Positions 3,274 through 37,809 of a DNA stretch of 38,271 nt are shown piece by piece. The translations under genes were made by a program, and so were the position numbers. Every line of letters starts with the position of its first letter. Positions within the stretch are counted from its first letter, which is position 1. This stretch comes from Candidatus Bathyarchaeota archaeon (lineage in GTDB: Archaea; Thermoproteota; Bathyarchaeia; Bathyarchaeales; Bathyarchaeaceae): assembly GCA_029879825.1 (NCBI GenBank), contig JAOUPL010000001.1, positions 1-38,271 of the forward strand. The letters are read 5' to 3'. The notes below the pieces were generated by a model. It was not told the DNA's origin. It worked only from the letters and a program-made list of their open reading frames with translations, and made no database searches.

Positions 3274-3426
3274 AACTACATGTTACAAGTGTAATATATG
3301 TTTTAGCTAGCGGCTCAACCGAAGACTTCTATTAATTTGCAGAGTGAACGGCCAGAAAAGTAGAAGGCTAACAGAGAGGTAAGATGAAACTTTGAAGCAA
3401 CTTTTTTTAAGTCGAATACAATTAAA

Positions 3427-4506
3427 ATGGAGTTTCGTAGGAAGCCATCTAACATGAAGGCTGGAATAGTTGGTTGCGGAGACGTTTCTGGGCTTCATGT
3501 AAATGCATGGAGAGACATAGGAGCGTCCGTAACCACTGTCTGTGACATAAATGAAAAAACTGCCATGCAATTTGCCAAAAAATGGAGAATCCCTTCTCAC
3601 CATACTAGCTTCTCTGAGATGCTCCAAAGCGAAGACCTTTTCGCTATTTCAATCTGTACTCCTCCCCAATTTCACGCGGATCTAGCTACAGAGGCTCTGG
3701 AGTCTGGATGTCACGTGGTCGTGGAAAAACCCTTCACTGTGACGACTAAGGGGGCGGATAAAGTCATGGATACGCTTCAGAATTCATCATCGAGGCTGAC
3801 GATAATTCATAGCCAACTCTTTGAGCCGTCAATGCTACGTGCAACGAAGCGAATTAAAGCAGGAGACATTGGGCAAATCGTTGGAATGAACGTTGGAATT
3901 TTACACAGCAATGATGAACCAATGGCATCAGATAGAAATCATTGGTGCTATAGACTTCCAGGGGGCAGATTTGGAGAAAACTTACCCCACCCCATATATC
4001 TTCTCCAAGCCGTTCTAGGAAAATTGGAAGTCAAATCCGTTTTCACTGACAAACTGGGCCCTTATCCATGGATGCCCTTCGATGAATTGAGAGTAATTTT
4101 GGAGGCCGATGAGAAAAAGATTGGAACCATTTATATCAGCTTTAACGCTCCAGGGTCCCAGAGAACTGATGTCTATACAGACATCTACGGCACTGGAGGT
4201 GCCGTGCAAGCCGGAATCTACCCTATTAGCAGTTTAATTGCAACGAAGCCCGGACGCGGAATATGGCTCGCCGAGAATGTCGTTGACCAGATCAAAATAG
4301 GGCTTTCATACTTGAGCACCATCTTAGCTAAACAGAGAGGACCCAGAAGTTTTAGCACTGCGCATGCAATGATTATCAGGTCATTTGTGGAAAGCATCTG
4401 TGGTAACGGAGAACCACTAGTCACCCCTGAAATGGGATATGAAACCGTGCATGTCGTTGAACAGATATGTAGACAAATAGATAAGACCTCAGTTTCTAAG
4501 AATTAA
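3427..4506 (+). CDS. Gfo/Idh/MocA family oxidoreductase
   Basis: Rossmann start MKAGIVGCGDVS; the likely true ATG is at 3454. EKP motif (VVVEKPF). Confidence 0.7.
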   Translation: MEFRRKPSNMKAGIVGCGDVSGLHVNAWRDIGASVTTVCDINEKTAMQFAKKWRIPSHHTSFSEMLQSEDLFAISICTPPQFHADLATEALESGCHVVVEKPFTVTTKGADKVMDTLQNSSSRLTIIHSQLFEPSMLRATKRIKAGDIGQIVGMNVGILHSNDEPMASDRNHWCYRLPGGRFGENLPHPIYLLQAVLGKLEVKSVFTDKLGPYPWMPFDELRVILEADEKKIGTIYISFNAPGSQRTDVYTDIYGTGGAVQAGIYPISSLIATKPGRGIWLAENVVDQIKIGLSYLSTILAKQRGPRSFSTAHAMIIRSFVESICGNGEPLVTPEMGYETVHVVEQICRQIDKTSVSKN

Positions 4507-4652
4507 CGCGCGCGTAATAGTTTATGACGTTAATAAATTGTTTATCTCGTTTATTATATCATCTTGAAGACTTTTCACGGTCTAGGCTTATCTGCAGGAG
4601 GCAACATTAGAGTTTTTAAGAGGCACTTAATTAGTGATTTGAGGGTTTCTGG

Positions 4653-5828
4653 ATGAGAACTCTAGACGGAGTCAGAGTATTAGACCTAACTAGGCTGTTG
4701 CCTGGAGGCTATTGCACAATGATACTGGGCGATATGGGAGCCGAAGTCATTAAGGTTGAAGAACCTAGCTTAGGCGACTACATACGTTGGGTGCCCCCGC
4801 TCATAAAGGGTCAAAGTGTCTCTCACCTAATGCTGAACAGGAACAAGAAAAGTCTGAAACTGAACCTGAAGTCTGAGAAGGGCAAAGAGGTTTTCTATAA
4901 GTTAGTGGAAAGGTCCGATGTAGTTATCGAATGCTTCAGACCAGGAGTTGTCAAAAGACTCGGCATCGATTACGAGTCTGTCATTAAGGTTAACCAACGC
5001 ATAGTTTATTGTTCAATGTCTGGCTATGGTCAGGATGGACCCTATAGAGACTTGCCAGGACACGATGTAAACTACATAGGCTATGGGGGGGTCCTTGGCA
5101 TAACCGGCCAATCCGGTGAGACTCCTGTAATACCAGGCGTTCAAATCGCGGACTTGACCACGGGCCTTATGACGGTTATGGCGATACTCGCTGCCCTCTT
5201 GGCGCGAGAGAAAATGGGAAGAGGGCAATACATTGACGTATCCTTCCTTGATGTTGTCGCTTCTCTGATAGTCTTACCTGCAGCCTTCTATGTTGGTGAC
5301 GGAAGGCCCCCGAAACGTGGCGAGTGGTTGTTGAATGGTGGTTTTCCCTGCTATAACGTCTATGAGGCCAAAGATGGGAAGTATATAACCATAGGATGCC
5401 TAGAAGAGGAATTTTGGGCTAGCCTCTGTAGGGCCTTGAACGTAACCGACTTCATCAAATACCAGTATACCACCGACGATGCTAAGCTCAAGGAGATGTT
5501 TCAAACCATCAAGAAAATTTTCAAAAGAAGAACTCTGAGCGAGTGGATTAAGTTTTTGTCAAAGGAGGATGTGCCGTGTGGACCTGTCTTCGACATGGAC
5601 GAGGTGTTCAAGGATCCTCAGATATTGCATAGGAAGATGGTTGTGGAAGTTGAGTATCCAGGCGTGGGCAAAATCAAACAACTCGGCACGCCAATGAAAT
5701 TCTCTGAAACCCCTTGTGAGATTAGGAGTCCCCCTCCATCCTTCGGAGAACACACAGAGGAAATTTTGAAGTGGCTTGGTTACGCTGAGGCAGAAATACT
5801 GAGCATGCAGCAGGAAGGCGTCACGTAA
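4653..5828 (+). CDS. Family III CoA-transferase (CaiB/BaiF, acyl-CoA racemase-like)
   Basis: The N-terminus GVRVLDLTRLLPGGYCTMILGDMGAEVIKVE is the family signature. 391 aa. Confidence 0.8.
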   Translation: MRTLDGVRVLDLTRLLPGGYCTMILGDMGAEVIKVEEPSLGDYIRWVPPLIKGQSVSHLMLNRNKKSLKLNLKSEKGKEVFYKLVERSDVVIECFRPGVVKRLGIDYESVIKVNQRIVYCSMSGYGQDGPYRDLPGHDVNYIGYGGVLGITGQSGETPVIPGVQIADLTTGLMTVMAILAALLAREKMGRGQYIDVSFLDVVASLIVLPAAFYVGDGRPPKRGEWLLNGGFPCYNVYEAKDGKYITIGCLEEEFWASLCRALNVTDFIKYQYTTDDAKLKEMFQTIKKIFKRRTLSEWIKFLSKEDVPCGPVFDMDEVFKDPQILHRKMVVEVEYPGVGKIKQLGTPMKFSETPCEIRSPPPSFGEHTEEILKWLGYAEAEILSMQQEGVT

Positions 5829-19410: not shown

Positions 19411-20541
19411 TTAGATTTCTGTGAAGGTTAACAAATTTACCTGCAATGGTTGCTTTATTGCCTCTGAGACGCGAGCAGCCACGAGGAACTTGATGTTCTT
19501 TTCAGCTGCAACATCTACGAGTCTTTGAGTTATAACACCGTCAAAGATCACTGTGTCCACATCCTTTATTCCCTGAAGTTTCTCTGCGAGTTCACTTACG
19601 GGCAGTCGCTCTATTTGCTGCATCTTATTGTTTAGTAGCACAGCCTCTAAGGTTCCTTCCAGTTCTTTTGCGGTTTTAACAATTTGTTGAGGAACTAGTA
19701 TTTTCCGCCGCGCTTTCTTGGCTTTTATTTTTCCTATGGGAACCTTTTCTTTGAGGGCTTTTTCGATTTTTTTGGGGCTTAACTCTTCTACTTCTTTACC
19801 TGGGGGCGCTCTGGCAATGTACTTAACGTCGGTTACCTGCAGCAGTTCTTTGAGGATAAGGTCTCCGCCTCGGTCTCCGTCGAGGAATGCTGTGGCTTCT
19901 TTTTCTCGGCATAGTTTTATGATGGTTTGCGGGATTTTGGCGCCTTCGAGAGCGATGACGTTTTGTATTCCAGTTTTTAACATGTTTATAACGTCTGCTC
20001 TTCCTTCTACTATGATTATTTCCTTTGCACTTTCGATGTCTGGTCCCGCTGTTAATCCGTCAGGTCCATATTTTTCGACTCTTGCCAACCTTAATGTTTC
20101 TGAAACTTCTCTAAAAATTTCATCTGTGCCAGGCATGGTTTCGAGGGTCCATTCATGGAGAACCTCCTTCGCTCTGTCTATGATTGTCCTCCGCCTTGCG
20201 TCGCGTATATCTTCTATTTTATCCAAAGTGACCTTTGCTTCGCATGGTCCTACCCTGTTTATGCTTTCGATGCTCGCTGCGATGATTGCTGTGGAGACTC
20301 TGTCTAGGCTTGTTGGTATGGTTATCGTGCCGGTTGTCTTATCCTGTTTTGATTCTAAACTGATTTCTATTCTTCCTATTCTTCCCGATTTCTGGAGTTC
20401 TCGGAGGTCAAGTTCGGGTCCAAACAAGCCTTCTGTTTGTCCAAAAACTGCTCCGATGACGTCTGGTTTTTCAACCACTCCCTCCACTTCGAATCGGGTT
20501 CGTATAACATACTTTACCGTAACGGTTTGTGACGATTTCAT
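19411..20541 (-). CDS. dnaG: Archaeal DnaG primase (Toprim)
   Basis: N-terminus YVIRTRFEVEGVVEKPDVIGAVFGQTEGL is characteristic of archaeal DnaG. Toprim IIVEGRADV ... DGDRGG. Confidence 0.85.
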   Translation of the reverse strand: MKSSQTVTVKYVIRTRFEVEGVVEKPDVIGAVFGQTEGLFGPELDLRELQKSGRIGRIEISLESKQDKTTGTITIPTSLDRVSTAIIAASIESINRVGPCEAKVTLDKIEDIRDARRRTIIDRAKEVLHEWTLETMPGTDEIFREVSETLRLARVEKYGPDGLTAGPDIESAKEIIIVEGRADVINMLKTGIQNVIALEGAKIPQTIIKLCREKEATAFLDGDRGGDLILKELLQVTDVKYIARAPPGKEVEELSPKKIEKALKEKVPIGKIKAKKARRKILVPQQIVKTAKELEGTLEAVLLNNKMQQIERLPVSELAEKLQGIKDVDTVIFDGVITQRLVDVAAEKNIKFLVAARVSEAIKQPLQVNLLTFTEI

Positions 20542-20630: not shown

Positions 20631-21044
20631 TTATGCTCCTACTTTTTTCCTTAAAGTTTCCAGATAGGTTGCCAAACCTTCTATGTCCTTGACATCGTGC
20701 CCCACAAGGCCGAGAAGCTCTCTCCAGAAAAGAAGGTTGGGGGTTATTTTCATTTCTTCTAGGCGACGAGCTAAACGGTTGGTCCATTCCTTGCCATGTC
20801 TGTCAAAGTCCATTAGAAGGATGACTTCACGTTTTCCTTTTCCTTCTATTTCGCCGAGAACGTCGAGGAACGATTTTCCAGAGGATTTTGCTGAGATGAT
20901 GTCGCCTTCTAAACCCAGCTTATGTAGGGCGTTGATGTCGTTTCTTCCTTCCACTATTATTGGGGTGCCTTTGGTTGATTCTGTTGCGAGTCTTTCTAAA
21001 AGTTTAAGGATTTTCTCCAGTTTTTTCTCTGATTTGGTTGACAA
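20631..21044 (-). CDS. Small Toprim-domain protein
   Basis: IIVEGRNDINAL ... LLMDFDRHG, a Toprim E...DxD pattern. 137 aa. Confidence 0.6.
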   Translation of the reverse strand: MSTKSEKKLEKILKLLERLATESTKGTPIIVEGRNDINALHKLGLEGDIISAKSSGKSFLDVLGEIEGKGKREVILLMDFDRHGKEWTNRLARRLEEMKITPNLLFWRELLGLVGHDVKDIEGLATYLETLRKKVGA

Positions 21045-21049
21045 CGTTT

Positions 21050-22167
21050 CTACCTTGTTACCTCTATCTCCATCATTTTTTCTAACAGTTGTGGGTGCCT
21101 ATGGAAATGTTCTCTAACTGGCTTCAGAATTTCGATGAGGGCTTCTGTGACGCCGTTTTTTAGGTCTAGCGGATGGATTTTGCCTTCGACATAGGCTCTT
21201 TCCATTTTCTCATAGTTTTCGAAGTTTTCTGGGCCTCCGTATTTGGTTGGTCTCGGTATCTCTAGATTTTCTCTTTCGGCGAACACTACATATTTTGATA
21301 GTTCAAGTATGGGGTTTCCTTTCACCTGTTTGGGGGGGCAGTAGGCTTCTTTTATTTTGGTCTTTATGTCGTCGGGGGTGTCGTGGACGAATATGCAACT
21401 CTTGGGTATGCTTTTGGACATTTTTGAGCTGATCTGTATGTTTAGGTCCGCGTTTTCGTCAAATTCTTTTTCAACTGTTTCGGGTCCTTGGAGTCCCATG
21501 AGGAGATGGGTGTGGACGCACGAGGGTTTTTTCCAGCCGAGTTTTTCAGCTACGTCTCTTGCCAGCATGTGAGCCTTTCTTTGGTCTATGCCTGCGCAGG
21601 CTACGTCAAGGTCCATGTGAAAAATGTCTGCCGACTGCATACAGGGATAGTATACCCACGCCGTTTCGACGTCGGTCATGCTCATTTCACGACCCATAAT
21701 TGGTAAGGCGCGCCACGTTCTCTGCAGCGAAGCGCCTTTCGCTATTCGAATGACTTTTTCCCAGTATTCTATGTCTTTGGCTATGTCTGAAGCCCAGAGG
21801 TATTCCACGCTGACCGGTGTTACTCCGAGGGCTGTAAAGCATTGTTTTATGTATTCGCCGCAGGTATGGATTTTTTCCATGTCTCCGCCTAGTTTGTTGT
21901 TTATCCATGAGTGCCAGTCAGCGAGAAAGACGATGAAATGGAAGCCAGCTTTTGTCATGTCTTTGATTTTGGATGTGCAGACTAGGCCCATTCCGATGTG
22001 CATTATTCTGGGTGACCGTGAAGGTTCACGGCTCACTGTCCAGAGCACTCGAAGCCCCAGTAGGCTCTGGGCTTAGTCTTTGTTTCCAGTAATGTGCGGA
22101 TTTCTTGGGGAATTATGATTTCTTCTACGTTTCTTGTGACAAGGTCTATTCTTTGTTCTAAATCCAA
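21050..22167 (-). CDS. tyrS: Tyrosyl-tRNA synthetase, interrupted by a 32-nt intervening sequence
   Basis: Exon 1 (22167..22038, TTG start) encodes MDLEQRIDLV...KPRAYWGFECSG and then a stop. Track ORF 21050..22048 continues in another frame with MHIGMGLV...FLADWHSWINNKLGG...KMSKS...LHPLDLKN. Removing 22006..22037 restores one 361-codon frame. Confidence 0.8.
22006..22037 (-). other. Candidate BHB (bulge-helix-bulge) intron within tyrS mRNA
   Basis: RNA: CUGG(ACA)GUGAgCCGUGAAccUUCACGGUCAC-CCAG(AAU). This is a 4-bp helix flanked by two 3-nt bulges plus an inner hairpin. Excision of 32 nt is in frame. Confidence 0.55.
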
Positions 22168-22211
22168 GCAGATCGCCCTCTTACATCCTCATTCGCTTTT
22201 GTTAACTTAAA

Positions 22212-22463
22212 AGTTCTTGTCGCGGGCGTTGTGTCCCACGTAACTAACACTCAACCTCACAGTTGGAGCCTTACGCTCCTCTCAGGTGAGCTCTCTCTGA
22301 CGTGGGCTGGTAGGCGCCCGCGCCCACCGTGTCCCATGCCTGGGTAAACCCTTCGTCAACGGTAGATGAAATCACCAGCCTCTGTTGGGTCCGTCTGCAT
22401 GAGCCCTGTTAAGGTTCCGGTGGGATTATGCTCCAGCCTAGTGTCATCGCCACTAAGAAGACT
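22212..22463 (+). ncRNA. Structured RNA, RNase P RNA-like (tentative)
   Basis: GC-rich spacer with no ORF. GGCTGGTA, GGGTAAACCC (22342-22351) and GGTAGATGAAATCACC (22361-22376) resemble RNase P CR-III/IV. The termini AGTTCTTGTCGCG / CGCCACTAAGAAGACT can pair. Candidate P4 is GTGTCCCAC (22231) with GGTGGGATTAT (22419). The universal GGAAAGUCC is not seen. Confidence 0.4.
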
Positions 22464-22512
22464 GGAATCCATGGACATAAGATTTTCCTAAACCGGGAAG
22501 CTGGATAGGCTT

Positions 22513-24180
22513 TTAGCGTGTTGTTTTTATGATTCTTTGCAGGTCTATTTCGAAGGCGCTTGTTGGATTTTCTAGTTCAAAATTGTTGAGAACCTCTGGG
22601 TGGATTTCTCCTACAACGCCGATCTTTCTGCCTTTAACATAGATCGCAGCCGCTCTCCCCTGCAAGAAACTTGGATGCTTAGTCCCTTTGATCTCCCAGT
22701 TTTTCAAGTCGAGATTGGCGAGCAAAGCTTCCACGTAAGACTTTATCTCAGTGAAGTTGGCTGTTGGGTGGGAGGAGACGCATGCTACGTGAAGCCTTCG
22801 TTCTGTGCGGGTTTCAGCCTTCTCGTTGATTTCTATCACGTCGGAAACTTCGAACATTCGTTGGGGATATGCTTGGTGTTTGTTGTCTGCCAGATTCTTC
22901 ATCAAGCGGGGCAACAAATCGTTTCGAACTATGGAATACTCTGTGGAAACGGGGTTCGCCAGCCTAATCATCTTTCCAGCCTTCCTTCTCATTTTTTGAT
23001 AGTGGTCAACCTCGTTGGCGAGAATGAAGTTCATAGCTTCCACGAAGCCTAGTCCAACCATTATTTGTCGAACGTAATTCGCCACTGCACTCACTTCGTG
23101 TTCTCTGCCCGTTGTCACAGTCGTCGGCTTCGTGGGTTTCAGTCTAAAATAGCCGTAGCCGATGGCAACCTCCTCAACCAAGTCAATTTCATGCATTATA
23201 TCAATTCGATAGGCGGGAATCAGAACCTCCAAAACTCCTTTGCTTATCCTTCTTGCGTCAAGTCTAGACTTCTGGAGGGCTTGTATAGTTTTGGTTTCTG
23301 AAAGCTTGAGACCCAACAACGCGTTGGCATAGTCAACCCTCAACTCCATCTGCTGAGGCGTCAAGTCAGGAGTAACTAAGACGTGATCAGAGTATCCAAC
23401 GCGAACACTTTCTATGGTTGCGCCCATGTCTGCCAACGCTGTGACCAAAACGTTCAAGCTTCTTGAAATGGCGTTAGGCTCCGTACCAGTCACATCGATG
23501 AACAGGTTTCGCGTTCGACTGTCCACCCGTGTCAGTTCGCCATTGATTATCGGGGGAAAAGAGAGAACCCGCCCCAACTTGTCCACGATTAGGGGATACC
23601 TTGAGGCCCAATCCACGTGACCTTTATACGCGATTCCCTTCTCATGCTTCTCCAGAATTTCTTGCAGAGTCATCTCTTCGGTCTTGTCTAAGGGGACAAA
23701 TTTGACTTCATTTGGGGCGCTGGTTGTGTAAGCGAAGGGAGGTTCAACAGCGTCTAAGTTGTGCACTCCGATAGAAGCTTTTTTCCGGTCCCTGCCCACC
23801 CCCCAGTGAAGATCCTCCTGCATCTCCATAAGTTCTCTAACAGTATCATAGTCAAGCTTCACGTTGCGTATAACAGCGGATACGACGTAGGGCCTAACCT
23901 CAGCCACCGTTGGATCCACTTTCAAAACAATTTTTCCTTCCTTCACCTCGTACTTCGGCAGTCCAGTCTCCCAACCCATCAGTCCACGGAAAGCTCTGGC
24001 CACTCCACCGTAGCTTGAAAAGTCCACACGGTTTGGGTTAAACTCGATTTTCACGTAGTCTGGTCCGATTTCGTCTGTGTCAACGCCCAGCCAAGGAAGC
24101 CATTTAGCCATCTCTTCTACACTAAGGGGCCGCCCGACGAACGAGGAGAAGCGGTCTCTGTCTAGAGTTAACGCTGGCAT
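22513..24180 (-). CDS. pheT: Phenylalanyl-tRNA synthetase beta subunit
   Basis: 555 aa with archaeal-type B3/4 and B5 domain layout. Overlaps the pheS stop by 13 nt. Confidence 0.9.
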   Translation of the reverse strand: MPALTLDRDRFSSFVGRPLSVEEMAKWLPWLGVDTDEIGPDYVKIEFNPNRVDFSSYGGVARAFRGLMGWETGLPKYEVKEGKIVLKVDPTVAEVRPYVVSAVIRNVKLDYDTVRELMEMQEDLHWGVGRDRKKASIGVHNLDAVEPPFAYTTSAPNEVKFVPLDKTEEMTLQEILEKHEKGIAYKGHVDWASRYPLIVDKLGRVLSFPPIINGELTRVDSRTRNLFIDVTGTEPNAISRSLNVLVTALADMGATIESVRVGYSDHVLVTPDLTPQQMELRVDYANALLGLKLSETKTIQALQKSRLDARRISKGVLEVLIPAYRIDIMHEIDLVEEVAIGYGYFRLKPTKPTTVTTGREHEVSAVANYVRQIMVGLGFVEAMNFILANEVDHYQKMRRKAGKMIRLANPVSTEYSIVRNDLLPRLMKNLADNKHQAYPQRMFEVSDVIEINEKAETRTERRLHVACVSSHPTANFTEIKSYVEALLANLDLKNWEIKGTKHPSFLQGRAAAIYVKGRKIGVVGEIHPEVLNNFELENPTSAFEIDLQRIIKTTR

Positions 24181-25679
24181 ACCGGGGTCCTCCTCATCCA
24201 GCCCAGATCGTTTTTGTACAAGAGCCGTATGTCTTCAATGCCAAGCTTGAGAATTATCAGGCGTTCCAAGCCTCCTCCCCAGGCTAAAACTGGATATTTT
24301 ATGCCAAGGGGAGCCAAAACTTCTGGGCGAAAGATGCCCATTCCACAGAGTTCCACCCAAGTTTTGAGCTCTGGAACGTAAACCGTGGACTGCATTGAAG
24401 GCTCCGTGTACGGGAAGTAGCTGGGCCAAAACTGCACTTTTTTCAATCCAAGTTTAAGGTAGAACTCCTTCAAAGTTCCCATCAAGTCTCGCAGGGTCAC
24501 CTTTTTGTCCATGACTATTCCTTCAATCTGATGGAATTCCGCGAGGTGTTTGTAGTCTACCTTCTCGTTGCGGTAGACACGGTCCACGGAAAAAACCTTC
24601 ACCGGCGGCTCCTTATGCTCAGCGAGGTAGCGGATGGTCACCGCGGTTGTGTGGGTCCTCAGTATCAGCCTCTTCGCCTCGTCAGCACTCCAAGTGTACT
24701 CCCAACCTCTCGAACCCGTTATCCAACCGTCTTCATGGGTTTTCGCCACCGCATCCACAACATCTTTTTTGGGCAGTTTTCCCTTTCTTGGCTGCGCCAG
24801 ATAGAAAGTGTCCATCATCTCCCTAGCCGGATGATCTTGAGGTTGGAACAAGGCATCGAAGTTCCAGAAGGCTGTTTCAACGATGGAGCCTCGAATTTCT
24901 GTGAAGCCCATCTCTAGGAAAATTTCCCTAACCCTCTGGATTATCTGCTGTGCTGGATGAATTTTTCCAGGATGAATTATTGGACCAGGCGCGGTTACGT
25001 CAAACCGTCTGAGTTTTGCCTTTCGCCATCTCCCTGTTCGGATGAGCTCAGGAGTTAGTTGACTGACTTCCTCAACGATTTCTATTCCTTTCTCAGCCAA
25101 GTCCCAGCCGGCATCCGTTAATTCCAGTTCACGCAGGGTTTTCTTACTCACCTTCACAAGTCTTCGTTTTTTTAGAAGGGAAACAGCCTTTTGCAGTTCT
25201 TGGCTCAAATCCTCAACAATTAAAGGTTCCTTTTCAGCTAGGAGAGATAGAAGTTTTTCGTCATTTCCAGTCAGCGGTTCCCTCAAGGATTTCAGTACAC
25301 GTTCCTTTTTCTTTATGGTCGCCCAGTCCTTACGGCTAAGCCACCCCAAGGCTATGGTTAAGAACTTCTTTTCTAACCCTGCAGCATCAGCAACATCGTC
25401 AACAGAAGCCTCGCCGCCCAACTTGATCAACGAGTTGATTAAACGTCTTTCGGGAAGCCTTTTTTTCGCGTGATAACTTCCCTCTTTAGTTAAAGCGATT
25501 GCGGTTTGCTTTCTTTCATGCGTTCTTACTAGTTTCTTTGTGGTAAGGGAGAGGGCAGCACGCATGACTGCTGCATGAGCTAGGCCACTAACCTTGACTA
25601 ACTGGTCGACGGGGCCTCTCCCCCTTAGCCTTTCCAAGGCAAGTAGGGTTTTTTGTTCGTTCTCTCGAAGTTCAGCCAC
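24168..25679 (-). CDS. pheS: Phenylalanyl-tRNA synthetase alpha subunit
   Basis: 503 aa. N-terminal wHTH repeats and class II core motifs (HPAREMMDTFY, FRNE-like YRNEKVD, GMGIFRPEV...AWGGGLERL). Confidence 0.9.
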   Translation of the reverse strand: MAELRENEQKTLLALERLRGRGPVDQLVKVSGLAHAAVMRAALSLTTKKLVRTHERKQTAIALTKEGSYHAKKRLPERRLINSLIKLGGEASVDDVADAAGLEKKFLTIALGWLSRKDWATIKKKERVLKSLREPLTGNDEKLLSLLAEKEPLIVEDLSQELQKAVSLLKKRRLVKVSKKTLRELELTDAGWDLAEKGIEIVEEVSQLTPELIRTGRWRKAKLRRFDVTAPGPIIHPGKIHPAQQIIQRVREIFLEMGFTEIRGSIVETAFWNFDALFQPQDHPAREMMDTFYLAQPRKGKLPKKDVVDAVAKTHEDGWITGSRGWEYTWSADEAKRLILRTHTTAVTIRYLAEHKEPPVKVFSVDRVYRNEKVDYKHLAEFHQIEGIVMDKKVTLRDLMGTLKEFYLKLGLKKVQFWPSYFPYTEPSMQSTVYVPELKTWVELCGMGIFRPEVLAPLGIKYPVLAWGGGLERLIILKLGIEDIRLLYKNDLGWMRRTPVCQR

Positions 25680-25893
25680 TAATTTTGCCTCCTCCTAGAC
25701 TTCGCCGTAACAGGGATCAGTAAACTGGTTTAGCATTGTAATAAGAATGTTTTAAAGGTTTCAACCTCAGATGCCCTAAACTAGTTGAAAAGGAAGTTAA
25801 AGGCGAAAGATTGGAAATTGGTAGGGCATCCCTTCACCTTCACTAGTGAGTACCGACAAAGATTATTTATAATTTGTCTGTCACCTTCGATGG

Positions 25894-27021
25894 CTACGCG
25901 ACCTGCATTATTTCCCTTGCTTTGTCAACGAATTTTCGCCGTTTTCGTTTATGATCCTTCACGAAGTTTAGAACGAGTTCTGTCGTCTTAGCTTTATGTT
26001 CTCCGCACAAGAGTTTCCCGCTTTTACAATCGTTGTAAACCTTCACAACGTCGTCGTCTTTTTCGACAAAATGGTACATTTCAATCTCGTATATGGGACA
26101 AATCTCCGGCACTCCGCCCAGTCTCCTCTGCTCTTCCACGGTGGGCCGTCCGCCGGTGAAGGCGTTTGAAATTTTCTTTGCTATAGATTCGGGGTTTTCG
26201 TGTAAAGTGAAGTAGCTCATGGAGTTTCGTTTAGCCATTTTTGGAGAACCGTCCAATCCCTTCATGATTTTGTGGTAGGTGGAGGAAGGTGAAACAAAAT
26301 TGAACTTGCGGCGAAACTTGCTGGCGAGGTCCCGAGTTAAACGTAGGTGGGCGTCTTGGTCAATACCTACAGGGACGACTGTTGGTTTTGGTCCGTCAAA
26401 ATCTTCGAGTTGAGGCATCAGTATGTCTCCCGCCTGTACGAGGGCGGACAAGTAGAGTCCAATGTTCCGTTCACCGTAGATGGCTTTCATTGTAGCCAGA
26501 GTTACGCTTCTTCCAAAAAGAACTGCTAAGTCTCTAACCCGCTGTTCCTTATACTGTCGATAAATGAAGCCACGCTTCGGGTCGAATCCTAGGGCGAGTA
26601 AATCTGCAACGTTGCCTGCAGCAATTTTTTCGCTTTTTTCGAAGGGGATTTTGTTGTCTTCGTAGGCTTCGATGTCTGCGATACAGTAGAAGGCAGTGGC
26701 TCCCTGTTGTTGGAAATAGATGATTTCCCGGGCGGTCATGAGGGTTCCTAAGTGAAACTCTCCTGTTGGTTTGATGCCACTCATTACTGCAAACTTTTCG
26801 TGGCTTTTCATATTTTCTAAGACGCTTTCGAAATCTCTGTGTCCGAAGATGACGCCGCGCCTCATATACATGCTTGGGTTCGGTATCTCCGCCAAAAGAG
26901 ATTTAAATCGCTGTATCCCGAACTCTTCGCAGAGGCGGTTGTAGTCCTCAACTACCGTTGTTCCCCAAGGGTCAAGCACCGTTTTCCTGTTACCAGCCGT
27001 CGACAACTTTTGACGTCCCAC
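25894..27021 (-). CDS. trpS: Tryptophanyl-tRNA synthetase (archaeal/eukaryal type)
   Basis: LDPWG...YNRLCEEFGI N-terminus, GIKPTGEFHLGT (HIGH region), GIDQDAHLRLTRD, KMAKRN in the KMSKS position. Confidence 0.85.
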   Translation of the reverse strand: MGRQKLSTAGNRKTVLDPWGTTVVEDYNRLCEEFGIQRFKSLLAEIPNPSMYMRRGVIFGHRDFESVLENMKSHEKFAVMSGIKPTGEFHLGTLMTAREIIYFQQQGATAFYCIADIEAYEDNKIPFEKSEKIAAGNVADLLALGFDPKRGFIYRQYKEQRVRDLAVLFGRSVTLATMKAIYGERNIGLYLSALVQAGDILMPQLEDFDGPKPTVVPVGIDQDAHLRLTRDLASKFRRKFNFVSPSSTYHKIMKGLDGSPKMAKRNSMSYFTLHENPESIAKKISNAFTGGRPTVEEQRRLGGVPEICPIYEIEMYHFVEKDDDVVKVYNDCKSGKLLCGEHKAKTTELVLNFVKDHKRKRRKFVDKAREIMQVA

Positions 27022-31163: not shown

Positions 31164-31288
31164 GGGGTTGCCAGCTTTCCCGACTTCGCGTGGCCGAAGA
31201 CCACACTAACACCGGAAACGGAGCGCGGTTTAACTTCTGAGTTCGGAATGGGATCAGGTGGGTCCCGCGCCCTATGGCCGGCAACCCC
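31164..31288 (-). rRNA. 5S ribosomal RNA (stand-alone)
   Basis: The reverse strand reads GGGGTTGCCGGCCATAGGGCGCGGGACCCACCTGATCCCATTCCGAACTCAGAAGTTAAACCGCGC...GCTGGCAACCCC. The termini pair. 125 nt. Confidence 0.85.
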
Positions 31289-31376: not shown

Positions 31377-31599
31377 GGGGCCGTAGTCTAGCTACGCCTC
31401 GTCATCTGATGAGGCGCTGGAAAGGGATGACGACAGTTGATGCGAAGTAGTGTCAACCGTTAAGGGCTCCAGAACAGAATTCACGGGTTTGCTGACCGTG
31501 TCGGGATGAAGAAATTCTGGAGCGGTGAAGAAACCCGTAGGAACGGGGATGAACTGTTCCGGGTAAAGGTCGTCGGTTCAAATCCGGCCGGCCCCACCA
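31377..31599 (+). tRNA. tRNA-Trp (anticodon CCA) with encoded CCA and about four intervening sequences
   Basis: Acceptor GGGGCCG/CGGCCCC, A73, CCA. T arm GTCGG-TTCAAAT-CCGGC. Anticodon loop CTCCAG|A at 31467-31472 + 31533. The stem AC..GGG/CCCGT needs removal of about 31435-31463. Other inserts lie at about 31393-31417 (D loop hairpin), 31473-31532 (37/38) and about 31540-31567 (variable loop). Exons sum to about 78 nt. Confidence 0.65.
31473..31532 (+). ncRNA. Box C/D-like guide element inside the tRNA-Trp 37/38 intron
   Basis: The order is a 12-nt guide, D' CUGA (31492-95), C' AUGAAGA (31506-12), a 12-nt guide, then D-like GUGA (31525-28). The fifth guide nt upstream of D pairs with C34. 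The fifth upstream of D' pairs with nt 39. Box C is degenerate. Confidence 0.5.
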
Positions 31600-32495
31600 C
31601 AAGCCGAACCGGCCCCGCCCGCGCGAAGATCTTCGGCACACTGTGGGAGCTGAAGAAGCGGGGCTACTGCGACATCACCTTGAAGACGAAAGGCGAACGC
31701 CTGAGGTTTCTGGCAAGGCACGTGGACCTGGATGACCCGGAGGCTGTGAAAGGGTTCATCGCAGAACAAACAAGCTGGTCCAATGGCTACAAACAGAGCG
31801 TAGCATACGCTTACGACAACTATGTGAAAACCAACGGCTTGCATTGGACTCTGCCACACTTCCGAGTGGAAGATAAACTGCCCAAGATTCCAACCGAGGA
31901 AAAAATCAACCAGATAATCGTAAGGGCCAGAGGCAAATATGTCCTGGTTTTCAGCATCCTCCGGGACACCGGCATGAGGCCCATCGAACTCGAAAGGACC
32001 AAAGTTAGAGACATAGACTTGGATACAGGAGTTATCACCGTCCGCACGGCGAAAGGCGGCTTAGGACGATCACTGAAGGTGAAGACGCAGACGCTGGCCA
32101 TGCTGAAGGAATACCTCGGGAAGCACGGCTTCGGGCTGAACGACCAGCCTTTTCCGAAGAGGAAGAAGATGACGGGGCGCTGGGTCAGGCTGAGGAACAC
32201 GGTCGCGGGGAAGCTGAAGGACGCCTCTTTCAGGGCGATCAGGCTCTACGACCTGAGGCACTTCGTCGGGACGACGACCTACCACAGGACCAAGGACATA
32301 GTCTACACCCAGAGGGTGCTGGGGCACAGGAGCCTGAAGAACACGATGAGGTATGTCCAACTGATAGACTTTGAAGAAGATGAGTTTACTTCTGCGGTAG
32401 CTAGGAACTTACAGGAAGCTTGCCAACTGATAGAAGTTGGCTTCGAATACGTAACAGAAATAGACGGTGCAAAACTATTCAGGAAAAGAAAGTAG
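31506..32495 (+). CDS. Tyrosine recombinase / integrase (probably the C-terminal part of an SSV-type integrase)
   Basis: Catalytic pattern TGMRPIEL (R), TAKGG (K), LYDLRHF (RH), LGHRS (H), MRYV (Y). The frame is open from 31464 through the tRNA 3' exon. The track ATG at 31506 sits inside the tRNA intron. The first start after the tRNA is TTG at 31680. Confidence 0.75.
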   Translation: MKKFWSGEETRRNGDELFRVKVVGSNPAGPTTSRTGPARAKIFGTLWELKKRGYCDITLKTKGERLRFLARHVDLDDPEAVKGFIAEQTSWSNGYKQSVAYAYDNYVKTNGLHWTLPHFRVEDKLPKIPTEEKINQIIVRARGKYVLVFSILRDTGMRPIELERTKVRDIDLDTGVITVRTAKGGLGRSLKVKTQTLAMLKEYLGKHGFGLNDQPFPKRKKMTGRWVRLRNTVAGKLKDASFRAIRLYDLRHFVGTTTYHRTKDIVYTQRVLGHRSLKNTMRYVQLIDFEEDEFTSAVARNLQEACQLIEVGFEYVTEIDGAKLFRKRK

Positions 32496-32522: not shown

Positions 32523-32735
32523 GATTCGCATACGCCCTGCCCGGTTTCTTCCCGCCCCCCTGCGCAGGACTTAGTTAGAGCAAATAACATGTTAACGCGC
32601 ACGCGATGCAAACAGTTGGAGAGCTTTTTGAAAACCTAGGGGAAAAACCAGGGAGCTAAGTGAAAACATCGACCTGTATCACAAACTGATACTCTCAAGA
32701 ATGAAACCTACGAAAGACGAGTAATATCCAGTTCT

Positions 32736-33482
32736 GTGCGCATGCATGCAAAAAACGACTTGCGCGCGTGTATGAAACAAGAAAACGTTTGTATACCACC
32801 TGTTGAAACATTGTTATATAGTCAGGTGATTTTATTGGCTGAAAAATGGGATGGAGTGGCATTTCTGAAAAATCGTATTGAAGCAATAGACCAACAATGG
32901 GTTGAAAATGTTCGGAAGACCAAATTCTTTCGAGTGGGTGCCTTTAATCTTCCCCACATGGAACCACAATTGAGACAGGTATATATGGATACTTATTTTA
33001 TCACAATGATGGGTTTTTGGAATGTTTCCATAATAATGCAAGGTGTGTTGTTGGAAACTTTGGTCAAAGAGATAATATTTGCAAAAGAGAAGAAAGAGTT
33101 CCAAAAGCCTTTTGGTGACGCCATTGATAGGTGTGAAAAGAAAGGTTACCTAAGCGATGAAGAGATCAGATTTTTGAGGCGATTCAAGGACGAGATTAGG
33201 AACCCCTATCAACATGTAGATGTCAAGAAGATAGTTGGAGAAAGCAAAGTTCGTGCATGGAAGATCTCGCTTAAAAAGGGCAAAGTAGCGGAGTCATTAC
33301 TTAAAGGGGTCGAAAAAGTGTTTAGAGAAGATGCTGGCCATGGCGAGTTGAAAGGTTATGAAGATATGAGACCCGTTGGAGTAGTCATTAAAGATGAGAT
33401 TGACAGACGATTGGCATTGCCTCTTTTCGGTCAAGTTGAAAAATTAGTTAGAAGTTTGTCAACAAAACATTTCAAGGTATAA
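32736..33482 (+). CDS. Hypothetical protein (weak DUF4145-like C-terminal motif)
   Basis: 248-aa ORF; the real start is probably ATG 32772. FLRRFKDEIRNPYQH resembles the RN..H signature of DUF4145, from memory only. Confidence 0.4.
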   Translation: MRMHAKNDLRACMKQENVCIPPVETLLYSQVILLAEKWDGVAFLKNRIEAIDQQWVENVRKTKFFRVGAFNLPHMEPQLRQVYMDTYFITMMGFWNVSIIMQGVLLETLVKEIIFAKEKKEFQKPFGDAIDRCEKKGYLSDEEIRFLRRFKDEIRNPYQHVDVKKIVGESKVRAWKISLKKGKVAESLLKGVEKVFREDAGHGELKGYEDMRPVGVVIKDEIDRRLALPLFGQVEKLVRSLSTKHFKV

Positions 33483-33806: not shown

Positions 33807-34214
33807 TTGAGACTATCAGAATTTATGCACATGCATAAAGGCGTAATCATCGTTCTCGGATTAATCATCGTTGTGGCAGTTGGATACATCGCAGTTAATC
33901 CCAATATAATTGGATTACCTACGCAAATAAGAATCATGGACGGAACTTGGGAAGATATAACCTTTCATGGACACGAATATCGGATTCTAGTAGAAAAAAG
34001 TGAACCAGTTACGTTTGCTAATTTTTCTTCAAGTAATTCTTCTTCATGGATTTTGTATATTTTCCTTACTGAAGGCTGGGATTTCCCAAGAATTGGAGAT
34101 GGAACATATCCAAATATCAAAGAAGGAGACATTATCTTCTACAAAGGTGTGAACATTAAAGTCAACAATATCGATGACTATAGTGTAACATTGTTGGTTA
34201 GTTGGGGAGAATGA
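33807..34214 (+). CDS. Small membrane-anchored / secreted hypothetical protein
   Basis: N-terminal TM helix GVIIVLGLIIVVAVGYIAV. Likely ATG at 33825. Confidence 0.4.
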   Translation: MRLSEFMHMHKGVIIVLGLIIVVAVGYIAVNPNIIGLPTQIRIMDGTWEDITFHGHEYRILVEKSEPVTFANFSSSNSSSWILYIFLTEGWDFPRIGDGTYPNIKEGDIIFYKGVNIKVNNIDDYSVTLLVSWGE

Positions 34215-34257
34215 TGTTTCGCGTGCGTCTTTCCATTAACCGTTAACCGTTGTCCGT

Positions 34258-34276
34258 GGTGGTGGTGGGTGGTGGG
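34258..34276 (+). repeat. (GGT)n G-rich tract
   Basis: GGTGGTGGTGGGTGGTGGG, preceded by tandem TTAACCG x2 at 34236-34249. Confidence 0.7.
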
Positions 34277-34645
34277 TCAAATTTTAACCGCCAAAAGCGT
34301 GCGCTCAGGAGTTAGCCACAGCCCGCAACCAACACACTCGTAAACTCCCGGGGTGCCTCGGACCCAGCCCGCTGTATTTTGGGATGTTGCCCAAGGGTGT
34401 CTGCGGGTTCCGCGTGGAGGGATATACCTGCAGACACATCAACAATGGTAGTTGCATTGAGTCAAATTTCCGGGGAAAACAGCATTAAGTAAAATGGGGG
34501 CCCCAAACTAGAAACCAAATGGAAAGGCCGCGGATTTTGACGCGCGCGCACACGCGAAACAGCTAAAGTGCCCACTTAGATAATTTAATAAATACTTGGA
34601 AATAAGTAGCATTTGTAGTTTAGACGTGTAGGTTGGTCTTGGGTT

Positions 34646-35284
34646 TTGGTCGAAGAAGCTCTTGTTTTTTGGGTCGGAGCGGCGATATTCGGATTCACCT
34701 CATTGATGTTTGCTGCATTAGAAAAGCGAGGACATGGTGGCGAAATGGTTTTCGGATCCAATATCTTTGTAAGTTTTATCACAACGATCTCGTACGTAGT
34801 CATGGCTTTGGCGTTAGGTACTACAATTGCAGAGAATGGACAACCAATCTATTGGACAAGATGGCTTTTCTACATCGCCAGTTGTAGCATACTAACCCTG
34901 GACATCGCCTTCATCGCACGAAAGCCAGCTTCCAAAAAGGTTGAAGTCGCGTTATTCACTGGACTTACAATGTTCTGCGGTTTCTTGGCAAGCATAATTG
35001 TCACGGCTGATCGTTGGTGGTTCTTTGCTCTAAGTACGGCCGCTTATTTCGGCGTGCTCTACACACTATCTAAACGATTAGGAGATGAGAGCGTCAACGT
35101 AACCTCCATAATGTGGTTTGTGATGGTAACTTGGTCTCTGTTTCCAGTAGTTTGGGTGCTTGCGCCAACTGGCTTTGGAGTTCTCACGACATTTGTTGAG
35201 GCTATACTCTATCTTGCACTCGACCTAATAACCAAGGTAGCTTTCGGCTTGTATATTTCAGCACGACAGGACATTGGCAAGTAA
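34646..35284 (+). CDS. Type-1 microbial rhodopsin, schizorhodopsin-like (F-S-D motif)
   Basis: Seven TM segments. PIYWTRWLFYIASCSILTLD aligns to bacteriorhodopsin PIYWARYADWLFTTPLLLLD. WSLFPVVW aligns to WSAYPVVW. LDLITKVAFG aligns to LDVSAKVGFG, giving the Schiff-base Lys with Asp at K-4. TTG start. Confidence 0.8.
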   Translation: MVEEALVFWVGAAIFGFTSLMFAALEKRGHGGEMVFGSNIFVSFITTISYVVMALALGTTIAENGQPIYWTRWLFYIASCSILTLDIAFIARKPASKKVEVALFTGLTMFCGFLASIIVTADRWWFFALSTAAYFGVLYTLSKRLGDESVNVTSIMWFVMVTWSLFPVVWVLAPTGFGVLTTFVEAILYLALDLITKVAFGLYISARQDIGK

Positions 35285-35403: not shown

Positions 35404-35919
35404 ATGGTCAAAGAAGTGAAATATAGCCTCATCAAAAAACTAGACAATGTGGAAATCAGGCTCTACAACAGCTTGATAATCGCCAAAGTTGACGGTTATG
35501 GTGATGCAGGCTTTAACCTTCTCTTCAACTATATCACAGGCAACAATACTCAAAAAACCACTTTAGAAATGACTTCACCCGTAATATCACAAAACATTGA
35601 AATGACTGCTCCCGTCCTATCAGAAAAAGACTCGATAGCATTCGTTATGCCTGAAAAATACACCTTGGAAACAACACCAAAACCTAATGATGAACGAATC
35701 AAAATCCAACAAATCCCAGAAAGATATGTAGCCGCACTAAGATTCAGCGGTCGCTGGACACCTTCAAATTTCGCAAAAAAATCAAAACAACTATTAAAAG
35801 AACTACAAACAGCAAAAATAAAAACAAGAGGAAACATTTTTGCAATGCGTTACAGCGGACCCTTCACACCATGGTTCATGCGGAAAAACGAAGTAGCAAC
35901 AGAAGTCCAACTCACCTAG
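35404..35919 (+). CDS. SOUL haem-binding family protein
   Basis: VEIRLY..., GFNLLFNYITGNN...LEMTSPV...IEMTAPV, and RFSG pattern. 171 aa. Confidence 0.75.
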   Translation: MVKEVKYSLIKKLDNVEIRLYNSLIIAKVDGYGDAGFNLLFNYITGNNTQKTTLEMTSPVISQNIEMTAPVLSEKDSIAFVMPEKYTLETTPKPNDERIKIQQIPERYVAALRFSGRWTPSNFAKKSKQLLKELQTAKIKTRGNIFAMRYSGPFTPWFMRKNEVATEVQLT

Positions 35920-36112: not shown

Positions 36113-36937
36113 ATGAATAGAACAGAAAGATTAGAGAATATTGCGAAATCACCGATTTCATTTGGCTATCTTAGAAAGTTCAACATGGGAGCAGGCATTC
36201 TTCATTTTGCTCAAGGAATAGTTATGGTAGCTCTTGGGCTTTCTAAAGCCTACAACCGTGACATATTCACTTTCTATTTGAAGTTCAACATAGTGAGCAC
36301 TGACCCGCCCGTTATCCAAGTTGGGCCAGACCCTAAAATCCTGCTGACAATAGGCTACATAGGAGTCGTGGCCGCTCTCTTTCCCCTAATCTCTGCAATA
36401 GCACATTTCACAATCGCGTTTGCGAAGAACAATGCCTACAATGAAAATCTGAAAAAGGGCATGAACCCATACAGATGGTACGAATATGCCCTTTCAAGCT
36501 CAATAATGATATTCCTCATCGCTTCGTTCGTAGGAGTGTGGGAGCTATGGTCACTCGTGATGATATTTGTCTTGAACGCAATGATGATAATGTTCGGATA
36601 TCTTATGGAGAAAATCAATCAGTACACTGAAAAGACTGATTGGTCATCATTCATCCTTGGATGCATTTCAGGCGGAACACCCTGGATAGCGATATACGCT
36701 TATTTCATCGCAGCCATAAGCAGCGTGTCGCAGAACGTTCCCACATTTGTGTACCTGATACTGTTCATCTACTTCATTCTGTTCAACATCTTCGCAGTCA
36801 ACATGGTGTTGCAATACAAAGGCATCGGAAGGTGGAAGGATTACCTTTACGGCGAAAGAATCTACATAATCCTGAGCTTCGTTGCAAAAAGCATTCTGGC
36901 TTGGCTGGTATTCGTAGGAATCTATGCACCTTTCTAG
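36113..36937 (+). CDS. Heliorhodopsin
   Basis: Closely parallels my recollection of HeR 48C12. NPYRWYEYALSSSIMIFLIA matches NIFRWVEYSLSSSVMIVLIA. LQYKGIGRWKDYLYGERIYIILSFVAKSILAW matches LQYKGKGKWSNYLRGERAYIVLSLVAKSALAW, with the Schiff-base Lys and Glu counterion present. Confidence 0.85.
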   Translation: MNRTERLENIAKSPISFGYLRKFNMGAGILHFAQGIVMVALGLSKAYNRDIFTFYLKFNIVSTDPPVIQVGPDPKILLTIGYIGVVAALFPLISAIAHFTIAFAKNNAYNENLKKGMNPYRWYEYALSSSIMIFLIASFVGVWELWSLVMIFVLNAMMIMFGYLMEKINQYTEKTDWSSFILGCISGGTPWIAIYAYFIAAISSVSQNVPTFVYLILFIYFILFNIFAVNMVLQYKGIGRWKDYLYGERIYIILSFVAKSILAWLVFVGIYAPF

Positions 36938-37122: not shown

Positions 37123-37809
37123 ATGGCAAGCGGTTCGCTCGAATTTCGGGCAACAAACCTTGATTGCCTTTTGGCTCTTGTGATCGCATTCGGCCTACCC
37201 GTGGCGTGCGGGCTCCTGTACCCACTGACGGGCGCACTTGTCCCTCTAACACTGTATTATGGCTTGTGCTGCGTAGGCATCGTGAAGTGGCGGCGTGGAA
37301 CACTTGAGTATCGTCGTCCGAAGACTTGGGCCTTCCCCATTTTTCTGACGATGATCGCAATGCAGCTGATCCAACAGATCATTGGTTTTGTGCTAGTGCA
37401 ACCTGTGCCAAGCCCCGACGCAGTCGGAGTGCTCATCTCCCTTATTGTTTGGGCACCACTCAATGCTTTAATGGAGCAGTTGAGTTGGATCTACTGCTAC
37501 GATGCATTCGCCTCACGCTTCACTAAGAAGAGCCAGAGAATAGTGGGGAACATCGTCGGCCTCGTGTTGATGCTATCTCTAGTTGGACTTATCCATGTGC
37601 TCTTCTGGGCGAAATTCACGCCAGCATATTCACCGATCGGTAGCTTCTTCTTAGTTTTCATGGCCCTGCAATTCGTAACCACCGGTCTCTACATCATGCT
37701 GTATCGAAAAGTCCGCTCCATGATCCCTCTGGCATTAGTTCACATCATATCTGATGCGGGCTTGGTTCTCATTCCAGGATTCTCAATCTTCCCGTACCTT
37801 CTGCCATAG
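37123..37809 (+). CDS. Polytopic membrane protein, degenerate CPBP (CAAX protease)-like
   Basis: At least 6 TM segments. Motif-like MEQLSW (versus EExxxR), VGLIH (FxxxH) and HIISD (HxxxD). The first motif lacks the second Glu and the Arg. Confidence 0.3.
   Translation: MASGSLEFRATNLDCLLALVIAFGLPVACGLLYPLTGALVPLTLYYGLCCVGIVKWRRGTLEYRRPKTWAFPIFLTMIAMQLIQQIIGFVLVQPVPSPDAVGVLISLIVWAPLNALMEQLSWIYCYDAFASRFTKKSQRIVGNIVGLVLMLSLVGLIHVLFWAKFTPAYSPIGSFFLVFMALQFVTTGLYIMLYRKVRSMIPLALVHIISDAGLVLIPGFSIFPYLLP

Follow-up and report, generated by a model that had tools for sequence, protein, structure and literature searches.

The window analysed here is a 38,271-nt stretch of DNA from a Candidatus Bathyarchaeota archaeon, and the question raised by its locus at 34646..35284 is whether the gene encodes a functional schizorhodopsin (SzR), and whether the F-S-D motif of the predicted protein is new. 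An initial annotation had described the product as schizorhodopsin-like, with F-S-D as a variant of the F-S-E motif of the inward proton pumps in this family. We consider it very likely that the gene codes for a functional schizorhodopsin, one of the Asp-acceptor (F-S-D) subgroup, and that its carrier is a Bathyarchaeia archaeon.

The gene lies on the forward strand and encodes 212 aa, from the TTG start of the initial annotation to a TAA stop. An in-frame TAG is found upstream at 34616–34618 and no in-frame start lies between the two, so the TTG is the earliest possible start. The next in-frame candidate, M21, was rejected because most of helix A would be lost. The same codon position is ATG in some related loci (L001, L003, L004 and L006) and TTG in others (L002, L007, L008, L044, L047, L048, L051 and L055), and the N-termini of homologs align there as M/L-x-E-E. 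Sequence comparison thus supports the putative TTG start. A practical point is that this codon makes some gene callers shorten helix A, which would account for SzR database entries of 192–195 aa (for example P0008, P0012 and P0017). Compared with six orthologs, the gene had a dN/dS of 0.16–0.24 (about 0.2), with reading frames intact and the D86 codon kept, indicating purifying selection. The reading frame is well beyond chance, given this ratio, the Pfam match to Bac_rhodopsin (PF01036, E = 1.9 × 10−28) and 173 homologs at E < 1 × 10−5 in a large protein database.

PF01036 was the sole Pfam match of the protein. Among all PDB sequences, the best match was schizorhodopsin 4 (SzR4; 7e4g, E = 5.8 × 10−39), followed by Antarctic rhodopsin (AntR; 7 × 10−26) and then RxR, MrHR and SRII, with bacteriorhodopsin (BR) near 1 × 10−13. 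An AlphaFold2 model of the monomer, built on a 35-sequence alignment, had a pLDDT of 87.1 and a pTM of 0.86, and predicted seven transmembrane helices, with a B-C loop that forms a beta-hairpin. When this model was used as a Foldseek query, the top hit was the 199-residue chain of SzR4 7e4g (TM 0.87/0.92, 38% identity) and the second was AntR. The 173 database homologs included a rhodopsin of Methanoculleus taiwanensis (P0099; 60% identity, 99% coverage), which we identify as MtSzR since D40, D87, I35, F36 and L91 sit at the numbers used in the MtSzR cryo-EM preprint. The nearest reference genomes bearing an SzR were Bathyarchaeia MAGs (56–68% identity).

The phylogeny was a BR-rooted neighbour-joining tree of 143 sequences with 100 bootstraps. 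Besides the query, it took in 34 close homologs, full-length representatives at 50% identity from an exhaustive HMMER search, and SzR4, AntR, BR and RxR. The smallest clade that united the query with SzR4, AntR and MtSzR held 67 of the 143 sequences, none of which had Asp or Glu at the BR D85 position. Exactly this clade was recovered in 72/100 bootstraps, BR and RxR always fell outside it, and Asp or Glu at the D85 position was absent from the SzR clade in 93/100 replicates. The query and MtSzR shared a 30-member subclade (27 F-S-D, 2 F-S-E and 1 Y-S-D), and SzR4 and AntR each lay outside the query-MtSzR group in 89/100 replicates. The schizorhodopsin-like assignment is supported: SzR4 is the best match by both sequence and fold, the model is next nearest to AntR, and the residues essential for pumping are kept. 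The three grounds for refutation named with the assignment were each checked and went in its favour, as the tree groups the query with SzR4, AntR and MtSzR in the SzR clade, the multiple alignment has Phe and no carboxylate at the BR D85 position, and the lysine and pocket residues expected to hold retinal are intact.

Which residues these are follows from alignment to a BR reference sequence that is 100% identical to PDB chains such as 1o0a. BLASTP against BR (26% identity) paired R72 with R82, F75 with D85, S79 with T89, C80 with T90, D86 with D96, D193 with D212 and K197 with K216, and the 143-sequence MAFFT alignment gave an identical register. Both confirmed the positions first assigned to R72, F75, S79 and D86 in helix C and to D193 and K197 in helix G, and the multiple alignment, the proposed check for a carboxylate at the D85 position, placed Phe there. 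The helix C motif is encoded at 34859..34903 on the forward strand (R72, 34859–61; W73; F75, 34868–70; Y76; S79, 34880–82; C80; S81; L83; D86, 34901–03, GAC). The helix G codons lie at 35222..35236 on the same strand, with D193, the predicted single Schiff-base counterion, at 35222–24 and K197, the predicted retinal-binding lysine, at 35234–36.

The helix C residues R72, W73, F75, Y76, S79, C80, S81, L83 and D86 are equivalent to SzR4 R67, W68, F70, Y71, S74, C75, S76, L78 and E81, and the SzR numbering given in the initial annotation (R67/F70/S74/E81/D184/K188) agrees with both the literature and this alignment. The protein thus has an aromatic non-carboxylate residue, F75, at the BR D85 position (SzR4 F70), Ser and Cys at T89 and T90, the heliorhodopsin-like helix C residues W73 and S81 (SzR4 W68 and S76), a carboxylate, D86, at D96, Arg at R82 and a single Asp counterion, D193. 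It is compact, at about 200 aa, with a short cytoplasmic TM5-TM6 region and a 7-residue gap relative to BR in the E-F region of the BLASTP alignment. The family-defining SzR residues are present throughout, comprising those of helix C from W73 to D86 (W73, F75, Y76, S79, C80, S81, L83 and D86), E100, an N-terminal Glu pair, W163, P167 and W170 in helix F, and D193, T196, K197 and F200 in helix G. All of the SzR4 residues essential for transport (S74, C75, L78, E81 and D184) are matched, by S79, C80, L83, D86 and D193, and the retinal lysine (K197, aligned with BR K216 and SzR4 K188) and pocket residues are intact, including the Tyr/Trp pair that sandwiches the retinal (Y76/W163, SzR4 Y71/W154). 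In the sequence, basic residues are concentrated at the C-terminus and in the A-B, C-D and E-F loops, consistent with an N-out/C-in protein, an orientation that would place D86 on the cytoplasmic side.

In the 120 homologs closest to the query, the helix C residues R, W, Y, C and L were invariant, and F75 and S79 were each kept in 119/120; D193 was invariant, as was R72. Position 86 was Asp in 109 and Glu in 10 homologs, and the full motif read R-F-S-D-D-K in 106/120 and R-F-S-E-D-K in 10/120.

Other rhodopsin identities were considered for the gene and rejected. A heliorhodopsin would match PF18761, a family of inverted topology, which was matched instead by the neighbouring gene at 36113–36937. 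A xenorhodopsin identity is contradicted by D193, rather than Pro, at the BR D212 position and by F75, rather than Asp, at the D85 position. The same F75 leaves no DTD/DTE-like carboxylate acceptor for an outward pump of the BR/PR type, and a halorhodopsin identity was rejected by both motif and profile tests.

The initial annotation implied that the F-S-D variant was novel, and this did not hold, as F-S-D is the majority motif among the closest homologs (106/120) and is already in print. A 2023 paper lists "FSD/FSE: inward H+ pump" among rhodopsin motifs, and Inoue et al. (2020) reported "glutamate or aspartate" at the BR Asp96 position in 58 of 63 SzRs. Higuchi et al. (2021) found that SzR4 E81D keeps transport and that SzR4 E81Q is dead; the D86E swap suggested for the query has in effect been done in reverse by the former mutant. 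MtSzR (D87) and MsSzR (D82) are natural Asp-bearing inward H+ pumps with cryo-EM structures, and putative SzRs in Bathyarchaeota were already published in 2020. In the Bathyarchaeia/Methanoculleus branch, the usual form is F-S-D and not F-S-E. The query is an ordinary uncharacterised addition to a well-studied family, with a motif that is normal for its branch. Its discovery value is small because SzRs have already been solved by crystallography and cryo-EM and studied by mutagenesis, and several pumps of the family, including some with Asp at this position, have been characterised.

A mechanism can be proposed for the query by analogy with the characterised homologs SzR4 and MtSzR. All-trans retinal would be linked to K197 through a protonated Schiff base. 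The only counterion would be D193, because the usual primary counterion position is occupied by F75. Light would isomerise the retinal to 13-cis between Y76 and W163, a Tyr/Trp pair that was reported to be fully conserved in 85 SzRs (Y71/W154 in SzR4). A shift of helix C (S79, C80 and L83) would then open a hydrophobic gate made up of V35, L83 and I90. The proton of the Schiff base would pass straight to the cytoplasm, pulled by the negative, deprotonated D86, as in the 'untrapped inward release' model; D86 is probably stabilised by N39, the equivalent of SzR4 N34. Reprotonation of the Schiff base from the extracellular side would result in net light-driven inward H+ transport. Both this transport and retinal binding are expected in the query from what has been described for MtSzR, MsSzR and SzR4, all three of which have been reported as trimers.

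Two features bear on which version of this mechanism applies. TM2 of the query is not shortened and no evidence of an MsSzR-like C-terminal Lys clamp was found in the query, so "untrapped release with hydrophobic gating", as in SzR4 and MtSzR, would be expected rather than the electrostatic relay of MsSzR. The local network of the acceptor is not identical to that of SzR4, as T195, the hydrogen-bond partner of E81 in SzR4, is replaced by I204 in the query, as in MtSzR, and SzR4 F153 by T162. The Glu at the D86-equivalent position of AntR is dispensable for transport, and what D86 does in detail may therefore vary from one SzR subgroup to another.

We examined the DNA upstream of the gene for signs of its expression. 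The initial annotation had noted a 431-nt ORF-free spacer, and this is exact: the preceding ORF ends at 34214, so the spacer spans 34215–34645. It contains only mechanical ORFs of at most 50 aa, and in L041, a near-identical contig, gene calling left it empty. Only the last 65–93 nt of the spacer are conserved (75–92% identity in L040, L044–L049, L075, L076 and L080). An A/T-rich TATA-like box, TTTAATAAATA, lies at 34584–34594, which is 52–62 nt upstream of the TTG, and comparable A/T boxes occur at similar distances in L001, L003, L004, L006, L007 and L018. We read this conserved 3' part, at 34573..34645 on the forward strand, as a putative promoter-proximal and 5' leader region. The SzR gene is probably expressed from this archaeal promoter of its own, with a TTG start and in genetic linkage to the SOUL-domain and heliorhodopsin genes described below. 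A structured RNA gene in the GC-rich spacer was considered and rejected: no Rfam family passed the gathering threshold anywhere in the window and none reached E ≤ 1 within 34150–34700, ARAGORN found no tRNA in the spacer, fold z-scores were −1.3 (forward strand) and −0.9 (reverse strand), neither significant, and only the 3' end is conserved. No repeats of the spacer were found elsewhere in the window.

The region around the SzR gene looks recombination-prone and is mosaic. The sequence GCGCGCGC occurs four times in the window, compared with 0.27 expected, and all four copies lie at gene boundaries between 33487 and 37845. Tracts of (GC)≥3 are likewise concentrated, with 9/12 in the last 5.5 kb of the window, and (GC)n tracts flank the SzR gene in some relatives and are absent there in others. 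In L089, the SzR gene breaks off precisely where a (GC)6 tract lies, and pieces of the spacer are present in a different gene arrangement; other 5'-truncated SzR remnants were seen in L038, L039 and L088. An integrase-family gene lies at 31506–32495, 2.2 kb upstream of the SzR gene and beside a 5S rRNA gene. No att-like direct repeats were found, and PHROG gave no matches among the other ORFs. The near-identical strain L041 has the same layout, so there is no empty site to compare. These data speak neither for nor against an integrated mobile element with the rhodopsins as cargo, and a housekeeping XerA-type recombinase is equally possible. The window also contains an archaeal SRP RNA, the 5S rRNA and a tRNA-Pro, and its PheRS-alpha is about 100% identical to a protein of a Candidatus Bathyarchaeota archaeon MAG, 87% identical to that of Bathyarchaeota BA2 and 80% identical to that of Ca. 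Bathyarchaeum.

Two genes downstream of the SzR gene, both on the forward strand, are of interest in relation to light. A SOUL-domain protein of 171 aa (PF04832, E = 5.4 × 10−41) is encoded at 35404..35919, 119 nt downstream, and a heliorhodopsin of 274 aa (PF18761, E = 7.7 × 10−92), a second retinal photoreceptor unrelated to the SzR, at 36113..36937. Fifteen informative loci had an SzR at least 79% identical to the query; in 11/15 the SOUL gene was found on the same strand at +120 to +126 nt, in one at +1978 nt, and in three it was absent. It is also near the SzR gene in L040. In most of the 15 loci a heliorhodopsin is also close by, at about 3 kb or less. Its position varies, and it is no more than about 3.2 kb from the SzR gene in L044–L047, L054–L056, L075, L076, L002, L007, L018 and L071/L072, of which L002, L007, L018 and L071/L072 are the more distant Bathyarchaeia loci with this linkage. 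The linkage was seen in none of the Asgard, Methanoculleus or bacterial loci compared. SOUL genes beside heliorhodopsins have been noted before and tied to oxidative stress, and heliorhodopsins in Bathy-6 and Bathy-8 are already published. No retinal-synthesis (blh, crt) or carotenoid genes were found within the window; a 464-aa FAD protein was rejected as a lycopene cyclase because its profile match ran only through a generic Rossmann N-terminus.

These observations on the neighbourhood are more interesting than the F-S-D motif. Bathyarchaeia, usually seen as dark-sediment anaerobes, are confirmed to carry a predicted inward proton pump and a heliorhodopsin side by side, in line with earlier reports of light sensing in the group. 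A speculative reading, which we hold to be doubtful, is that the SzR, the downstream SOUL protein and the nearby heliorhodopsin form one co-regulated light-response module within a recombination-prone cassette region, its boundaries marked by (GC)n tracts, in which the SOUL protein would be a functional partner for chromophore or tetrapyrrole handling, or for photo-oxidative protection tied to inward pumping. If true, the module might offer a genetic handle on the physiological roles of SzRs and heliorhodopsins. Of everything described here, only the conserved SzR-SOUL adjacency might serve as a lead for experiments on what cells gain from inward proton pumping.

We weighed several other accounts of what the SzR gene does. 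The protein might pump inward by an AntR-like route, with D86 protonated or dispensable and another residue or bulk solvent accepting the proton. Transport by AntR E81Q is almost wild type, SzR2 has a His at the acceptor site that is not needed, and the loss of the SzR4 partner T195 to I204 points the same way. However, the query is much nearer to MtSzR (60% identity) than to AntR (34–35%), the MtSzR subclade excluded AntR in 89/100 bootstraps, Asp or Glu is kept at position 86 in 119/120 close homologs, and N39 matches SzR4 N34, which hydrogen-bonds the acceptor. We therefore regard this route as unlikely. That the protein is mainly a photosensor or regulator, working with the SOUL protein, the heliorhodopsin or both, rather than an energy-relevant pump, seems highly improbable to us. 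Such a role could be read from the same-strand adjacency of the SzR and SOUL genes at about 120 nt in 11/15 close loci, with a heliorhodopsin nearby, but the pump-essential residues are all conserved, the SzR has neither a fused nor a neighbouring Htr-type transducer or signalling domain, and all functionally tested SzRs in the literature consulted are inward pumps. SOUL genes also stand beside heliorhodopsins and outward pumps in other taxa, where they have been read as an oxidative-stress theme rather than as signalling.

The gene might instead be silent or non-functional in its host, having arrived recently as a cassette in a variable part of the genome, where it would be held back by a weak TTG start and a lack of retinal. 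Purifying selection across orthologs with intact frames (dN/dS 0.16–0.24) argues against this, as do the conservation of the TTG across the lineage, with ATG at the same codon in other orthologs, and the conserved promoter-like upstream region. The start codon, the integrase gene 2.2 kb upstream, the mosaic region with 5'-truncated SzR remnants in L038, L039, L088 and L089, and the lack of retinal pathway genes within the window would all suit a silent gene, yet rhodopsin-bearing microbes without a neighbouring blh gene have been described, and we give this account only a very slim chance. Lastly, the query could be a BR-, halorhodopsin- or xenorhodopsin-type pump that exports protons or moves some other ion. 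It shares the general type-1 rhodopsin fold and Pfam family with such pumps, but we find this account scarcely credible. F75 at the D85 position removes the proton acceptor of outward pumps, F70D/E mutants of SzR1 do not turn into outward pumps (Inoue et al. 2020), the residue at the D212 position is Asp and not the Pro of xenorhodopsins, and the TSA, NTQ and NDQ motifs are absent. Our preferred reading thus remains a functional SzR of the Asp-acceptor subgroup.

Among known systems, this SzR is most usefully compared with MtSzR, with which it shares 60% identity over 99% of its length. MtSzR has been reported as an inward H+ pump with a cryo-EM structure; D87, the equivalent of D86 in the query, has been named as its proton acceptor, and its thermostability has been linked to Pro-rich loops. 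The two proteins fall in the same neighbour-joining subclade, each has a single Asp counterion, and both have Ile at the SzR4 T195 position. The gate positions I35, F36 and L91 of MtSzR correspond to M34, V35 and I90 of the query. Unlike the query, MtSzR has Tyr rather than Phe at the BR D85 position (Y-S-D), and its D40 stands where the query has N39, like N34 of SzR4. The host of MtSzR is a methanogen, whereas that of the query is a Bathyarchaeia archaeon.

The Asgard proteins SzR4 and SzR1 (7e4g) are similar to the query in size (about 200 aa for SzR4) and SzR4 has the same B-C beta-hairpin. The R, W, F, Y, S, C, S, L, E95, W, P, W, D, K and F residues are all kept at equivalent positions, as is N34 (N39). 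They differ in the acceptor, which is Glu in SzR4 (F-S-E) and Asp in the query, and the A-B loop of the query is 3 residues longer. AntR (PDB 9or2/9ork) sits in the same family clade, follows the R-F-S-(acidic)-D-K pattern and, like the query, has Cys in place of BR T90; its identity to the query is only 34–35%, it has Phe at the position of W170, it lacks an equivalent of E100, and published work assigns it to the bacterial clade.

The resemblance to xenorhodopsins is one of function. PoXeR and NsXeR are also light-driven inward H+ pumps, but they belong to a convergent, distant family whose members keep Asp at the D85 position, carry Pro in place of D212 and have a helix G Asp acceptor that transiently traps the proton, whereas the query has F75, D193 and a predicted acceptor in helix C. 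BR and the query have in common the seven-helix fold and the equivalents of R82, D212, K216 and W182/P186/W189. In the query, BR D85 is replaced by Phe, W86 by Tyr and T90 by Cys, and the E-F region is about 7 residues shorter. BR pumps in the opposite direction, and D96, which donates a proton in BR, corresponds in SzRs to a residue that acts as an acceptor or attracting charge.

The first gene after the schizorhodopsin (SzR) gene encodes a SOUL-domain protein (window 35404–35919, + strand; 171 aa, PF04832). Of 15 informative close relatives, 11 had a SOUL gene on the same strand, approximately 120 nt 3' of SzR. In L040 it occupies positions 2123–2638, and the observation also draws on loci L044–L047, L049, L054–L057, L063 and L084. 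No SOUL gene was found near SzR at the Asgard, Methanoculleus and bacterial SzR loci sampled. We found no prior description of this tight SzR–SOUL pairing in the literature searched; heliorhodopsin-adjacent SOUL genes have been reported previously. Two genes downstream of SzR is a full-length heliorhodopsin gene (window 36113–36937, + strand; 274 aa, PF18761, E = 7.7 × 10−92), so the cluster codes for two retinal proteins that are not related to each other. Heliorhodopsin genes also occurred within about 3 kb of SzR at many related Bathyarchaeia loci, in varying positions and orientations.

Several database entries for close SzR homologs, including P0008, P0012 and P0017, are just 192–195 aa long because gene callers chose an internal start over the conserved TTG, a choice that removes most of helix A from the called protein. 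At L040, for example, the SzR gene as called (1425–2012) begins about 20 codons downstream of the homologous TTG.

We analysed (GC)n tracts across the window, where they were strongly enriched in, and confined to, the rhodopsin region; nine of the 12 tracts of (GC)≥3 fell in the last 5.5 kb. The sequence GCGCGCGC occurred four times (33487, 34542, 35298 and 37838) against 0.27 expected, with further (GC)n tracts at 32762, 36023, 37020, 37899 and 38120. The tracts were mostly intergenic, at gene boundaries. They also flanked SzR in L048, L051–L053 and L063, but not in other relatives. SzR remnants truncated at the 5' end were present at four loci, namely L089 (Ga0224501_10010808, 1–5125), L038 and L039 (both CP070649.1) and L088. 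In L089 the truncation point coincides exactly with a (GC)6 tract, and the locus carries pieces of the window (32534–32569, 34303–34424 and 34453–34541) in a different gene arrangement. This rearrangement suggests that the region is mosaic and recombination-prone, although the L089 arrangement may itself be an assembly chimera.

Within the 431-nt spacer 5' of SzR, positions 34215–34572 were GC-rich (approximately 0.55, vs 0.37 in the flanks) and gave no Rfam match, tRNA or significant fold. Among the loci sampled, this part was conserved only in L041, from a near-identical strain, and piecewise in L089. The three ORFs flanking the rhodopsin cluster (32736–33482, 33807–34214 and 37123–37809, all + strand) had no significant family assignment, and none was conserved beside SzR in the other loci sampled. 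The 228-aa ORF gave only a sub-threshold Rce1-like/CAAX protease match (E = 0.005), and the 135-aa ORF has a hydrophobic segment at its N-terminal end.

Upstream of the rhodopsin cluster, a tyrosine-recombinase gene (31506–32495, + strand; Phage_integrase family, 329 aa), with a raised local GC content of about 0.56–0.60, directly adjoins a 5S rRNA gene (31166–31285, − strand). We looked for att-like repeats and found none, so the gene could encode either a XerA-type recombinase with a housekeeping role or the integrase of an island.

Elsewhere in the window, four aminoacyl-tRNA-synthetase genes are clustered at 21050–27021 on the − strand: a class I W/Y-type synthetase (21050–22048), PheRS beta (22513–24180), PheRS alpha (24168–25679) and a second class I W/Y-type synthetase (25894–27021). 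Two adjacent Toprim-domain genes (19411–20541 and 20631–21044) adjoin a family B DNA polymerase gene.

SzR-like genes were also present at seven loci whose contigs had been assigned to bins of Flavobacteriaceae, Aminicenantaceae, Buchananbacteria, Anaerolineales and Gammaproteobacteria. The L005 gene, 62% identical to the window SzR, sits on a contig of 4.9 kb that looks possible as a mis-binned bathyarchaeal fragment. The other six (L028, L030, L032, L034, L035 and L037) are consistent with the bacterial clade of SzRs that was described recently.
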